Assembly (NCBI GenBank): GCA_012441205.1
Contig: GCA_012441205.1_4705.1
Source: a phage
Direction: 5' to 3' (one strand)
Length of the DNA: 64,000 nucleotides
The translations under genes and the position numbers were made by a program. Below, one piece after another: positions 1,086-4,345 of the stretch (within the stretch, counting starts at the first letter, position 1; the number at the start of each line of letters is the position of its first letter). Under the pieces are notes generated by a model that did not search any database, had not been told where the DNA came from, and worked only from the letters and a program-made list of their open reading frames with translations.

Positions 1086-1619
1086 TTAAGCTCCTTTCTG
1101 TTTGATTGATGATGTTAACCACGATGATCTTACCGTGAAACCCTCGGACTCGTAGAACGCCTGGGCTTCGTCGTTATCAGCACGAACATCCAGGCCGATA
1201 GAATGCCCGCCGCATCGGTAAGCGATGTTACGTGCTTCGTTCATCAAGGCGTGGCCGATCCCGCGTCCACGGTATTCCGGTTTTACAACAATCGATGTAA
1301 CATCATGAATGCCCATATGGCTCTCTGTATTCACTTCCAAGAGGCCTACCGGTATCGAAGCGATGGTGTCGATCATAACGACCAACTTTGCGGTGTCCGG
1401 TAAACGCTTCTCTAATTCTAAGGCATCGTACTCGCGTTTTAAATCGGGGATATTCTCAAACATAAACGTGGTTGCCCATGCCTCTGATTCTACATCATCG
1501 AGAATACGGTACAGCTCACGAATCTGTCGTTTATGTGGGTAAAGGTGTGGATCGGCAGCCGTTGAGGCGATAACGCAATAGAACGGCCGTTCATTAATAA
1601 CTACTGTTTTGATGCTCAT
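1086..1619 (-). CDS. GNAT family N-acetyltransferase
   Basis: RGRGIGHALM...GLDVRADNDEAQAFYESEGF resembles the acetyl-CoA binding motifs of GNAT enzymes; 4-nt start/stop overlap with upstream gene. Confidence 0.7.
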   Translation of the reverse strand: MSIKTVVINERPFYCVIASTAADPHLYPHKRQIRELYRILDDVESEAWATTFMFENIPDLKREYDALELEKRLPDTAKLVVMIDTIASIPVGLLEVNTESHMGIHDVTSIVVKPEYRGRGIGHALMNEARNIAYRCGGHSIGLDVRADNDEAQAFYESEGFTVRSSWLTSSIKQKGA

Positions 1620-2122
1620 GCTAAAATTCCCTCATTACCTAACAGTCGATTACGGTGACGTCGGTACATTTGACAAAGTGTTGTGATTTGATAAAGTTTG
1701 TTATAACGTAATTCGATACGTTTTTGCACCTCTTTCCATGAAAGTTTATCATATTGCCGATAACGATGGATTTCATTCAACATCCGAAGACGCGTAGGAT
1801 CGGTATTCTTTATTGTTACGAGCTTCACGCGTTGGTATCCGCGCTGCAACCCCGATTCAGAATACGTAATGCCGAACTCATCCTGAATGATAGTAATGAT
1901 CTCCCGCCATCGGCGCTTCTCGCCGTCACGTAAATGGACAACCCGCGATAAGATATCGTTCCGATTACGATGACTCAGTTTAATGTTAAGCATTGAAGCA
2001 ATCGCGCTAATTGCTCTCTGACTCCGCCCTAACGCCTCACCGATCTCTTTCGATGTCATGACGCCAGCGTTTCGACGTATGAATGCGATTTCGGTTGTTG
2101 TGTATTCTTTACCTGCCGCCAT
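1616..2122 (-). CDS. Myb/SANT-like HTH protein, paralogue 1 of 6
   Basis: Shares the N-terminal HTH-like segment (EIGEALGRSQRAIS) and C-terminal W..I...EFGITY pattern with the five downstream ORFs. Confidence 0.5.
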   Translation of the reverse strand: MAAGKEYTTTEIAFIRRNAGVMTSKEIGEALGRSQRAISAIASMLNIKLSHRNRNDILSRVVHLRDGEKRRWREIITIIQDEFGITYSESGLQRGYQRVKLVTIKNTDPTRLRMLNEIHRYRQYDKLSWKEVQKRIELRYNKLYQITTLCQMYRRHRNRLLGNEGILA

Positions 2123-2586
2123 TTCTTACCACGCGTGTTATAATAGTAACGTTGACAAAGATGTGTGTGATGGTACTCCCGTTTGAACTCGACATTGATA
2201 ATGCGAGCAACTTCTCTCCAGCTAACCCCTTCATGTCGAAGTGTCGTGATACGGTCTGAAATTTTGCACCATTCACCAGGATCGTATCGTCGCAGTTTAT
2301 GACGTCGTATTACGGAGGCGACGCTCGCTTTCGAGCGACCAAGATGATTCGACATTCGTTTAATCGAGTATCTATGGATATTATCGCGAATATAGGAAAG
2401 CTCGTTGTCTGTATACGTCGCGTTGGTTCTCGGCGAAGGGAACAATACGTATAACTTATTCTTAATCGCGCTTTCCGTGCGTTGAAACACGGTAACCAGT
2501 TCACTAATCGATGGTCTAGGTATTTGATACGCGTAATTCTCGAGGCGTGAGAGTTCCTCATCTGTCCAGCGGCGGTATTTGCGCAT
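2056..2586 (-). CDS. Myb/SANT-like HTH protein, paralogue 2 of 6
   Basis: Start trimmed to internal ATG (MRKYRRWTDEELSRL); W-x2-EE-x2-L motif. Confidence 0.5.
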   Translation of the reverse strand: MRKYRRWTDEELSRLENYAYQIPRPSISELVTVFQRTESAIKNKLYVLFPSPRTNATYTDNELSYIRDNIHRYSIKRMSNHLGRSKASVASVIRRHKLRRYDPGEWCKISDRITTLRHEGVSWREVARIINVEFKREYHHTHLCQRYYYNTRGKKWRQVKNTQQPKSHSYVETLAS

Positions 2587-3052
2587 GGGCAACTCCTTTG
2601 TTTTTCGTGTAATAACACCAACGTTGATACAACGCATGTTTATTCGTTGTAATCCCAAATTTAACAACAACGTCGTATGTGATAATATTCCAATTTTGGG
2701 TGACGTTAAGTCGTTCCGCGATAATCGCTTCCCGTTCTTGCTTGGTTAACGCACGACGAATTCCATTAAGCCGTATAAACTGACGAACCGAGTCATACGA
2801 ACGGTTTAAATCATACGCAATCTCCCTCAGCGATTTTTGTTTGATTACGGACTTGATGTACGCACGTTCTTCTTCCGTATACGGTCGATGCTTCTGGCGT
2901 TGACGTATTCCCAAACGCCCCAGACACGCGTCGATGCTGGCGTATGTTCGTCCTGTCCGTTGTGCGATTTCATCAATCGTCAGCGGCGTGTTCAAGTACA
3001 TGTGTGTAACATCTTTTAACTCATCGTTACGCCACGGCCGAGGTCGTCCCAT
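2558..3052 (-). CDS. Myb/SANT-like HTH protein, paralogue 3 of 6
   Basis: MGRPRPWRNDELKDV...IAQRTGRTYASIDACLGRL. Confidence 0.5.
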   Translation of the reverse strand: MGRPRPWRNDELKDVTHMYLNTPLTIDEIAQRTGRTYASIDACLGRLGIRQRQKHRPYTEEERAYIKSVIKQKSLREIAYDLNRSYDSVRQFIRLNGIRRALTKQEREAIIAERLNVTQNWNIITYDVVVKFGITTNKHALYQRWCYYTKNKGVAHAQIPPLDR

Positions 3053-3530
3053 CTTGTATCCCTCTTTTCTTTCTATGATGCCACCAACGCTGATAAACAG
3101 CTTGCTTCGTCCGTGTTATGCCAAAATGCGCATTAACCCGTTCAGCAATGTGGTACCAATCCTGCGTTTCTTCTAACAATGCATCAACGAAGGCTATGAA
3201 GATCTTAGTATCATCCTCGCTTAACCGCTTGAAGCCATGGCGGTGTGCTATTGTTCGAATACTGTTTGGATCTCTGTTTAAATCGCGTGCGAGCTGTTTG
3301 TAACTTTTGTGCTTACAGTGTAGTCTGATATGTTCTAATTCATCGACGCTGAAACGTTTATGCGGTTTACGGCGTTCGACGTTTAAGTACCTCAACCTTG
3401 ATTCGATTGCACCGTACGTCGTTTCCATGATTTCCGCGATTTCACGGATTTTTAATTTCGGGCGACGATCGTATAGTTTCAGCAACTGCTCATCGTACTT
3501 ACGATTCCATCGTCGTACTGGGGGTTTCAC
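3027..3530 (-). CDS. Myb/SANT-like HTH protein, paralogue 4 of 6
   Basis: RRWNRKYDEQLLKLY...IAEIMETTYGAIESRLRYL. Confidence 0.5.
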   Translation of the reverse strand: MKPPVRRWNRKYDEQLLKLYDRRPKLKIREIAEIMETTYGAIESRLRYLNVERRKPHKRFSVDELEHIRLHCKHKSYKQLARDLNRDPNSIRTIAHRHGFKRLSEDDTKIFIAFVDALLEETQDWYHIAERVNAHFGITRTKQAVYQRWWHHRKKRGIQDGTTSAVA

Positions 3531-3532
3531 AA

Positions 3533-4012
3533 CTAGATTTCTCCTGTTCTACGCGTTTTTAATGCTTGAGTGTAGTAAAGGGTATGAACACCGCTTAACG
3601 TGTAATGGGTGTTAAATTCGTTATTGATGATATTCTGTATTCTCTCCCAGGTTTTCTTCTCTTTTCTAAGAGTATGTATTCGGTGATAGATCATCTCTCG
3701 ACGTTGCGCTTTGCACGCGATAATACCGTAGCGGTAGCAGAGTTTAGCGATCGCATCCACGCTACGATTGAACATTACCGCGGCTTCTTTCACGCTGTGC
3801 GTCTTGAGATAATCGGCTAACATCACGCGTTCTTCGAAACAACAATAGCGGTGACGCGACGTGAGTTTCCAGCGCTTGCGATTACGGTTAATTCGACCTT
3901 GAACCGAACCTTCCGTTCGGCCAAGTCGTACCGCAATATCTTGCATCGGTATACCGTTTCGGTACAGGGTAATCAACATCGCATCTTCTTCGGGTGTCCA
4001 GTCCTTGACCAT
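3533..4012 (-). CDS. Myb/SANT-like HTH protein, paralogue 5 of 6
   Basis: VKDWTPEEDAMLITLYRNGIPMQDIAVRLGRTEGSVQGRINRNRKRW is a near-canonical Myb repeat pattern. Confidence 0.55.
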   Translation of the reverse strand: MVKDWTPEEDAMLITLYRNGIPMQDIAVRLGRTEGSVQGRINRNRKRWKLTSRHRYCCFEERVMLADYLKTHSVKEAAVMFNRSVDAIAKLCYRYGIIACKAQRREMIYHRIHTLRKEKKTWERIQNIINNEFNTHYTLSGVHTLYYTQALKTRRTGEI

Positions 4013-4024
4013 AATGCCACCCCA

Positions 4025-4345
4025 TCAACGTCTTACTTTAAGCGGTATCTTGTTTCGAAAACAATAACACCGGATGGCATGTACGCTACGATTCATTATT
4101 TCAGCAATCTCTTTTAGCGTATGTTTCTTTGCAAGCGTGGCAACCCTAACCCTTTCTTCTGGCGTATATACTCCCCCACGAGGTGGTAGGTCACCCCGTT
4201 GTTTTCTCAACTTGATGTAACGTGCGCGAACAGAGCACGGTGTTCGGTTCATGCAGCGCGCTACTTCTTTATAGCTCGCTTTTGGTGACGTGCTAAGAAT
4301 AAGCAGCAGTGTTTCATCTTCTTTATCCGTCCAACATTTACCCAT
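4025..4345 (-). CDS. Myb/SANT-like HTH protein, paralogue 6 of 6
   Basis: Start trimmed to ATG 4343-4345 with AAGGAGA RBS (ORF track used TTG); [14 protein letters not shown]...[16 protein letters not shown]. Confidence 0.5.

Follow-up and report, generated by a model that had tools for sequence, protein, structure and literature searches.

The closest described counterparts of the genes considered here are known from crenarchaea and from jumbo phages. Cbp2 of Hyperthermus butylicus (PDB 2lvs) has two helix-turn-helix (HTH) modules and a basic linker, is related to Pax and Myb and binds CRISPR DNA repeats (PMC3597662), and Cbp1 has three HTHs, the third of which recruits Cren7, together with which it forms chromatin-like arrays (PMC10883916). 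Among jumbo phages, 92% encode their own transcription factors (1–15 each), and Bacillus phage G shows a lineage-specific expansion of Myb-type RsfA-like factors (Iyer et al. 2021, PMC7824862). We analysed a 64,000-nucleotide (nt) stretch of phage DNA (GenBank assembly GCA_012441205.1, contig GCA_012441205.1_4705.1), the whole of which is referred to below as the window, and found that positions 1616–4345 carry a tandem array of six paralogous minus-strand genes, g1–g6, encoding small, very basic proteins built of HTH modules. We favour, with moderate confidence, the reading that this array is a lineage-specific tandem expansion, in chimalliviruses related to Escherichia phage vB_EcoM_Goslar, of multi-HTH proteins that act as accessory regulators with distinct DNA targets.

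Window positions 1000–5000 share 92.6% nucleotide identity with Goslar (NC_048170, 237 kb, genus Goslarvirus), and the entire window is collinear with Goslar 117,041–182,378, a stretch that encodes RNA-polymerase subunits, the nuclear-shell protein and PhuZ tubulin; on the strength of this collinearity and gene content, the window derives from a nucleus-forming jumbo phage (chimallivirus) of enterobacteria. The array is already present in the Goslar genome record, where it is essentially unannotated: RefSeq labels five of the proteins gp114–gp119 as 'hypothetical protein' and gp119 as 'SANT/Myb domain-containing protein'. In the window, the orthologues of these six, all on the minus strand, are g1 (1616–2122; 168 amino acids (aa); gp114), g2 (2056–2586; 176 aa; gp115), g3 (2558–3052; 164 aa; gp116), g4 (3027–3530; 167 aa, with a GTG start; gp117), g5 (3533–4012; 159 aa; gp118) and g6 (4025–4345; 106 aa; gp119). 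They lie exactly where the original prediction, made from the sequence without database searches, had placed six consecutive small overlapping or abutting genes, and its lengths of 107–177 aa count the stop codon (106–176 aa without it). Along the direction of transcription, g6 and g5 are separated by a 12-nt spacer and g5 and g4 by 2 nt, and the following junctions are overlaps of 26 nt (g4/g3), 29 nt (g3/g2) and 67 nt (g2/g1). A recognisable Shine–Dalgarno sequence precedes five of the six genes (AAGGAG, 7 nt 5' of the ATG, for g2; AGGAG for g4), and the long start of g1 has a weak one only. All six proteins have an isoelectric point (pI) of 9.9–10.5, and Pfam and NCBIfam searches found no catalytic, effector or other extra domain in any of them. 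AT skew at 2001–4000 is the strongest of the window (−0.18 against −0.10 to +0.06 elsewhere), owing to the A-rich Lys and Arg codons of these six minus-strand genes for basic proteins.

The six genes are true paralogues. All-against-all BLASTP connects every one of them (g3–g4, E = 7e-20; g5–g6, 3e-9; g2–g4, 2e-6; g1–g5, 7e-4), and profiles from which one orthologous group had been left out recovered the omitted copy among 698 six-frame open reading frames (ORFs) of the window at E values of 1e-18 to 9e-36 (g1 at 2e-22 and g2 at 2.5e-26), the next-best window ORF standing at E ~0.01–0.05. Identity between paralogues is 20–37%, and the most similar pairs, g3–g4 and g5–g6, are physical neighbours, as tandem duplication predicts. 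No seventh copy was detected in the 64-kb window or in the complete 237-kb Goslar genome; a marginal candidate at 12422–12790 was dismissed as resembling the 'LNRT..SI' motif over a short stretch by chance.

An AlphaFold model of g5 (predicted local distance difference test (pLDDT) score 87) contains nine helices arranged in three three-helix bundles, which delimit three units. Unit A (residues 5–46; 3875–4000, minus strand) is a Myb-like HTH with the pattern W-T-x-E-E-D...L-G-R-T-x-G-S-V-x-x-R and modelled helices at residues 7–18, 23–30 and 34–44; unit B (residues 57–97; 3722–3844, minus strand) is a second HTH with modelled helices at 59–69, 74–80 and 85–95; and unit C (residues 99–157; 3542–3718, minus strand) is a three-helix module with the pattern W..I...IN.EF..Y. 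The joint alignment of paralogues and orthologues gives as family signatures W-T-x-E-E-D...L-G-R-T-x-x-S-V-x-x-R for unit A, Y-T-x-E-E...S-x-K-E-I-A-x-x-L-N-R-S-x-x-A-I-R for unit B and W-x-x-I-x-x-x-I-N-x-E-F-G-I-T-Y...Q-R-Y for unit C. A comparison by hhalign shows units A and B to be homologous (probability 97%, E 7e-11), and an Arg/Lys-rich linker of ~10–14 residues connects them. Four of the proteins (g2–g5) are A-B-C, the g6 of the window is A-B only, and g1 is B-C-C', its extra unit C' being homologous to unit C (hhalign probability 93%, E 3e-7); the repeat period of the array is the entire A-B-C gene and not the single unit. The duplication and diversification of an HTH DNA-binding module that the original prediction had proposed is thus upheld by BLASTP, the leave-out profiles, the modelled bundles and the homology of A and B. 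Its account of the shared motifs needs correction. The N-terminal W-x2-EE...GRT pattern, taken to mark all six, is unit A and occurs in five proteins, g1 starting directly with unit B, and the 'W...I...EFGITY' segment likewise occurs in five, twice in g1 and not in the g6 of the window, and is the third unit rather than the second. The sole unit common to all six is B (Y-T-x-E-E...KEIA..LNRS..AIR), which had not been described.

Unit C is the only unusual structural feature of the family and is clade-specific. Modelled alone, unit C of g5 again folds into three helices (pLDDT 88), and hhalign did not demonstrate a relationship to unit A or B. Searches with it against PDB sequences returned designed helical repeats only, Foldseek against PDB gave no match with E <1, and a word-indexed search of a large protein database returned only Goslar-like fragments. 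The g3 of the window lacks three residues, I-A-F (2722–2730, codons 108–110), in helix 1 of this unit that are present in Goslar gp116, in the relative L002 and in other orthologues, a loss that resembles deletion by slippage within a short direct repeat (AII-AFI-A).

The unit boundaries also bear on the start of g1. GenBank begins gp114 at an internal Met, giving a protein of 147 aa and an ATGA junction with gp115. The 21 codons upstream of this Met align to helix 1 of unit B in the other paralogues (YTTTEIAFIRRN against YTDNELSYIRDN; residues 5–20) and are kept in all relatives, and in the divergent relative L004, which has a shorter g2, the long g1 is the one called and overlaps g2 by just 4 nt. 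The 168-aa form is favoured on these grounds, and the Goslar annotation of gp114 seems to omit its first 21 codons.

Assignment to known families is firm at the level of the HTH fold and diffuse below it. Only g6 exceeds both Pfam Myb gathering thresholds (Myb_DNA-bind_6, 35.5 bits against 22.9; Myb_DNA-binding, 32.6 against 24.4), so the Myb/SANT affinity proposed for the array is borne out at threshold by one protein, with the five others falling below: g5 reaches 15.6 and 13.6 bits on the two Myb models, and g1–g4 give no match or sub-threshold ones. Together g1–g5 scatter over HTH-clan Pfam families, several of which they fit about equally well, yet they are homologous to g6. All six match phrog_323 ('transcriptional regulator, D5-like') at E 1.5e-10 to 2.8e-19 (g2, 1.3e-18), over 100–160 of its 319 profile positions, which makes this a membership at domain level only, and the label itself is an annotation and not an experimentally based function. 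The best natural match of the family profile in PDB is 2lvs (E 2.4e-8 across A and B), with c-Myb next (1e-3), and Foldseek with g5 likewise ranks 2lvs first in PDB, as a weak match because the modules are flexibly linked. NF040595, the Cbp1 model, aligns over its full three-HTH length with g3 (23.9 bits, E 3e-5) and g4 (22.2 bits), against a cut-off of 140. Foldseek matches among viral models are the Goslar paralogues, then endonucleases, transposases, GcrA-like, Mor and 'D5' proteins, which are the usual carriers of tandem HTH modules.

Two of the families named for checking in the original prediction, sigma-70 region 4 and GcrA, were rejected as assignments. One HTH of g4 (27.1 bits) and one of g5 (34.2 bits) pass the Sigma70_r4_2 threshold of 25.7, but these are region-4-type matches only, with no region 2 or 3, and the ECF-sigma model TIGR02937, to which g4 alone has a match, gives 17.5 bits where the cut-off is 42.9. 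For GcrA (PF07750, NF050816), the best score is 14.1 bits (g5) against 26.9, over profile positions 2–42 and without the C-terminal domain, and there is no NCBIfam GcrA match.

The array occupies a slot between two genes, a NAD-dependent DNA ligase gene (4338–6407) on the g6 side and a GNAT acetyltransferase gene (1086–1619) on the g1 side, the latter overlapping g1 by 4 nt. In every relative retrieved (L002, L004, L005, L007–L009), this ligase-to-GNAT slot holds five to six copies in one-to-one orthology, which implies that the duplications predate the clade. The order is ligase-g6-g5-g4-g3-g2-g1-GNAT in L007, L008 and L009, with a g6 of 152 aa; the short contig L005 shows ligase-g6 (152 aa)-g5-g4 and then ends; and L004 has ligase-gp120-like-g5-g4-g3-g2-g1-GNAT, without g6. 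The 152-aa g6 orthologues of L005, L007 and L009 are A-B-C. Goslar has both gp120 and a 106-aa g6, and the window has the 106-aa g6 without gp120. With gp120 found in some genomes only, and g6 occurring in a 106-aa form, in a 152-aa form or not at all, the array has an indel hotspot at its ligase-proximal end. As to gp120 itself (235 aa; L001 7359–8066), it belongs to no Pfam family, lies between the ligase gene and the array in Goslar, has a gp120-like counterpart in L004 and is missing from the window and L007–L009; in the window the end of the ligase gene and the beginning of g6 have 8 nt in common (4338–4345).

Selection was estimated pairwise by the Nei–Gojobori method, with synonymous sites saturated for the most divergent pairs. 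The ratio of non-synonymous to synonymous divergence (dN/dS) against Goslar is 0.05–0.29 for the array genes, purifying selection acting on every one, and over all pairs it ranges from 0.05 to 0.36; the positive selection for which a test had been suggested was not seen. Against L004 and L007, dS over 1616–6407 falls into blocks, ~0.3–0.5 in some genes and 1.2 to saturated in others, with abrupt shifts between adjacent genes, a pattern that indicates mosaic recombination among co-circulating Goslar-like phages with breakpoints within the array. At deep, comparable dS, dN is ~0.08 for the ligase gene, 0.17–0.45 for g4, 0.22–0.63 for g3 and 0.43 for g6, so that amino-acid change is 2–8 times faster in the HTH genes than in the ligase gene with dN/dS still below 0.36. 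Within orthologues, helix 3 and the turn that precedes it rank among the more conserved elements, the mean pairwise difference per site being 0.21–0.27 in helix 3 and 0.14–0.19 in the turn (units A and B), against 0.29–0.38 in helix 1 and 0.23–0.44 in most linkers. When paralogues are compared, ~81% of helix-3 sites differ, and the G-R-T or N-R-S turn is all that they share. Recognition helices that are kept in orthologues and diverged in paralogues are the pattern expected of six stable but different DNA specificities, and it is not that of a hypervariable arms-race surface.

The short A-B-C form is restricted to one clade. An exhaustive profile search of 1.84 billion representatives returned 12,850 proteins at E ≤ 1e-3, and its top matches besides the Goslar-like orthologues are proteins of 300–900 aa with 4–10 consecutive A/B-like units. 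These long proteins form a large uncharacterised family, from which the short form of ~160 aa differs, the latter being found only in Goslar-like phage contigs (~135–248 kb), one of them from a Salmonella assembly. A tblastn search of 50,697 phage genomes gave close homologues only in Goslar and weak A/B matches in Klebsiella phages (~74–77 kb), and g4 as a query in IMG/VR found two close relatives only. Two distant single-gene relatives that were checked stand alone in mobile-element or phage contexts, with no array.

From this architecture and its evolution we infer DNA binding, and, resting on it, recognition of several grooves by a monomer, distinct specificities and a regulatory role with its target. 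Each protein would most likely act as a monomer on an asymmetric site of ~15–20 bp, by analogy with Myb R2R3 and Cbp1/Cbp2. Helix 3 of successive modules would then lie in adjacent major grooves, one module per groove, the basic A-B linker may run along the backbone or the minor groove, and unit C could lengthen the site or bring in a partner protein, much as Cbp1 engages Cren7 through its third HTH. The six sets of recognition helices would probably read six different DNA sequences, to judge from their divergence, and the proteins would probably serve accessory regulation, as activators or roadblock repressors of phage DNA transactions, among which transcription of the phage genome is the likeliest target. 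The original prediction had spoken of regulators with different target specificities; the helix-3 pattern is consistent with the specificity part of that proposal. An accessory role in transcription fits the survey in which 92% of jumbo phages have transcription factors of their own and phage G has its Myb-type expansion (PMC7824862).

Several observations weigh against accessory regulation by the six proteins. The literature search found no mention of Goslar gp114–gp119 and no transcriptome of Goslar. The search for candidate binding sites was negative: repeat and tandem-repeat scans of the window show nothing associated with the array, and the sole recurrent intergenic motif, a 25-mer containing TATATTAC, has 3–4 occurrences, none of them near it. 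Other chimalliviruses among the 50,697 phage genomes searched by tblastn are without the family, which is therefore not a core transcription component. An A-B-type module is also the targeting domain of phage HNH endonucleases and transposases, and an HTH fold alone does not equate to transcription. Finally, searches with unit C gave nothing significant in Pfam or among the sequences and folds of PDB, and the role given to it above is a guess.

The 25-nt motif is an observation in its own right. On the minus strand it reads TTTCACGGCTATATTACTTACGTGA, at 25487–25511, 48764–48788 and 54585–54609, with a weaker occurrence at 43482–43506, and it stands 41–86 nt upstream of three minus-strand genes, one of which is the nuclear-shell protein gene (52625–54520). 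It looks like a phage promoter element, and its TATATTAC core resembles the early-promoter consensus of PhiKZ. A scan for sigma-70 promoters and terminators gave counts at or below shuffle expectation and is of no relevance to a phage with its own RNA polymerases.

Nucleus-forming jumbo phages transcribe with their own RNA polymerases, and how these choose middle and late genes is poorly understood. It is conceivable, though we rate it as unlikely, that all six proteins enter the phage nucleus by import and there, as six sequence readers, divide up the Goslar genome or 'chromatinise' it, with specific sites bound by units A and B and a partner recruited by unit C, which would give the non-virion RNA polymerase its promoter or operon selectivity. 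Promoters of this chimallivirus polymerase show no reproducible consensus in PhiKZ (10.1101/2023.09.22.559000). The literature searched contained no sequence-specific DNA-binding regulator from any chimallivirus, and if the proteins are such readers, no dedicated DNA-binding regulators would have been described before them in a nucleus-forming phage. As plain accessory regulators they would be a routine addition to the HTH expansions of phages, the gain being mainly a better annotation of genes of which five in six are labelled 'hypothetical protein'; interest would rise if they proved to be nucleus-resident specificity factors for chimallivirus transcription. The locus offers six compact candidate DNA readers in Goslar, a laboratory-tractable E. 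coli phage.

That the proteins are directed at the host seems improbable to us. Remaining in the cytoplasm, they would then bind to the E. coli chromosome or to the transcription machinery of the host at an early stage of infection and would shut the host off or re-program it ahead of the degradation of its DNA, one option being a sigma-region-4-like or GcrA-like HTH that competes at promoters. Host DNA does persist until ~60 min after infection by Goslar (PMC9891218), the family is confined to the enterobacterial Goslar clade, entry into the phage nucleus needs a selective import that small accessory proteins perhaps lack, and two of the HTHs (in g4 and g5) pass the region-4 threshold. These points are met by the lack of sigma region 2 and of the GcrA C-terminal domain (14 bits against 26.9), by the fact that no NCBIfam family of bacterial regulators comes near its cut-off, and by the finding that nothing ties the proteins to a host sequence. 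The related idea of host-factor mimicry, raised in the original prediction, found nothing in its support.

Equally doubtful in our judgement is an architectural role, in which chromatin-like proteins of low specificity would cover phage DNA or give it order, either inside the nucleus or while it is being packaged, and six copies would mean dosage or partial redundancy. The small size, the pI of ~10 and the lack of effector domains all suit such proteins, Cbp1, the closest characterised relative, forms chromatin-like arrays with Cren7 (PMC10883916), and amino-acid change at 2–8 times the rate of the ligase at comparable synonymous divergence suggests loose constraint. Dosage or redundancy, however, would not maintain, in one-to-one orthology throughout the clade, six copies that are only 20–37% identical and that each conserve recognition helices of their own, and a search for gp114–gp119 in the paper on the Goslar virion model found none of them named among its proteins, the sole 'gp119' there being that of PhiKZ.

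A derivation from homing endonucleases is quite unlikely as an explanation of the array. On this account the genes would encode targeting domains that have lost their nuclease, either as decaying remnants or as domesticated site-protectors or competitors that mask cleavage sites when related phages co-infect. Three of the proteins (g3, g4 and g6) have matches to the HTH regions of PHROGs that bear an HNH-endonuclease annotation (such as phrog_8446, E 2e-7), the Foldseek viral matches include endonucleases (among them that of jumbo phage BcepSauron) and a LAGLIDADG protein, and the array lies in a mosaic indel-hotspot region (gp120 present or absent, g6 of 106 aa, 152 aa or absent, a Dam methylase gene present or absent). 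No trace of an HNH, GIY-YIG or LAGLIDADG domain was found within or beside any copy, however, with no Pfam match to these nuclease domains in any of the six proteins, and the family profile does not match Goslar's own HNH endonuclease genes. All six genes are under purifying selection and are therefore not decaying, and the stable position and orthology of the array across the clade are unlike those of mobile endonuclease genes. The notion that these are chance ORFs, or one long repeat-protein gene split by frameshifts, is effectively refuted: although neighbouring ORFs overlap and change frame, and long proteins with 4–10 A/B-type repeats are common elsewhere, each ORF has its own start codon and five of six a clear Shine–Dalgarno sequence, the period of the repeat is one full A-B-C gene, every ORF has a dN/dS well under 1, and the same gene boundaries recur in relatives with near-saturated synonymous sites.

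Other features of the window were noted alongside the array. A gene for a Dam-like, D12-class N6-adenine DNA methyltransferase (7680–8507, minus strand; Pfam E 2e-60) lies within a segment of ~850 nt (7673–8522) that has no Goslar counterpart; the gene is present in L007 and broken into two ORFs in L005 and L009. A tandem duplication at 50560–51273 with a period of ~370 nt (82 nt at 88% identity and 60 nt at 75%) occupies an ORF-poor stretch directly downstream of the RNA polymerase beta' gene (51228–52532), at a position where Goslar has an HNH endonuclease (gp186) and an annotated group I intron, neither of which is present in the window. GC-rich intergenic hairpin repeats (GCAGCATAAACCCTCCCCG / AAGGGAGGGTGG) at 23663–23701, 49628–49646 and 622–640 are probably intrinsic terminators common to several operons. 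No Rfam families or tRNAs were detected across the whole window.

Compared with the systems described at the outset, the proposed accessory regulators of Goslar-like phages resemble Cbp1 and Cbp2 in being small and in having only two or three imperfect homeodomain/Myb-like HTH repeats with basic linkers and no other domain; Cbp1 and Cbp2 are monomeric DNA binders, and partner recruitment by Cbp1 goes through its third HTH. They differ in scoring below the NF040595 cut-off, in being viral rather than crenarchaeal, in forming six diverged copies rather than one gene, in having a unit C that is not detectably homologous to A or B, and in the lack of a CRISPR-like repeat array in the window. The likeness to Cbp1 and Cbp2 is one of architecture, as far as sequence comparison goes, and not of family membership. 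With the Myb/SANT families (PF00249, PF13921), whose tandem repeats read adjacent grooves, they share a three-helix HTH of ~50 aa, the W-T-x-E-E-D start and the L-G-R-T/S turn before the recognition helix, but only the first of the three signature Trp residues is kept, the second and third positions being I, L, M or Y. The phage G system is alike in that a jumbo phage carries multiple paralogous Myb-type HTH proteins, which in phage G are read as phage-specific transcription factors; unlike it, the present array belongs to a chimallivirus with its own RNA polymerases, is built of A-B-C modules and forms one strictly tandem, co-oriented block.

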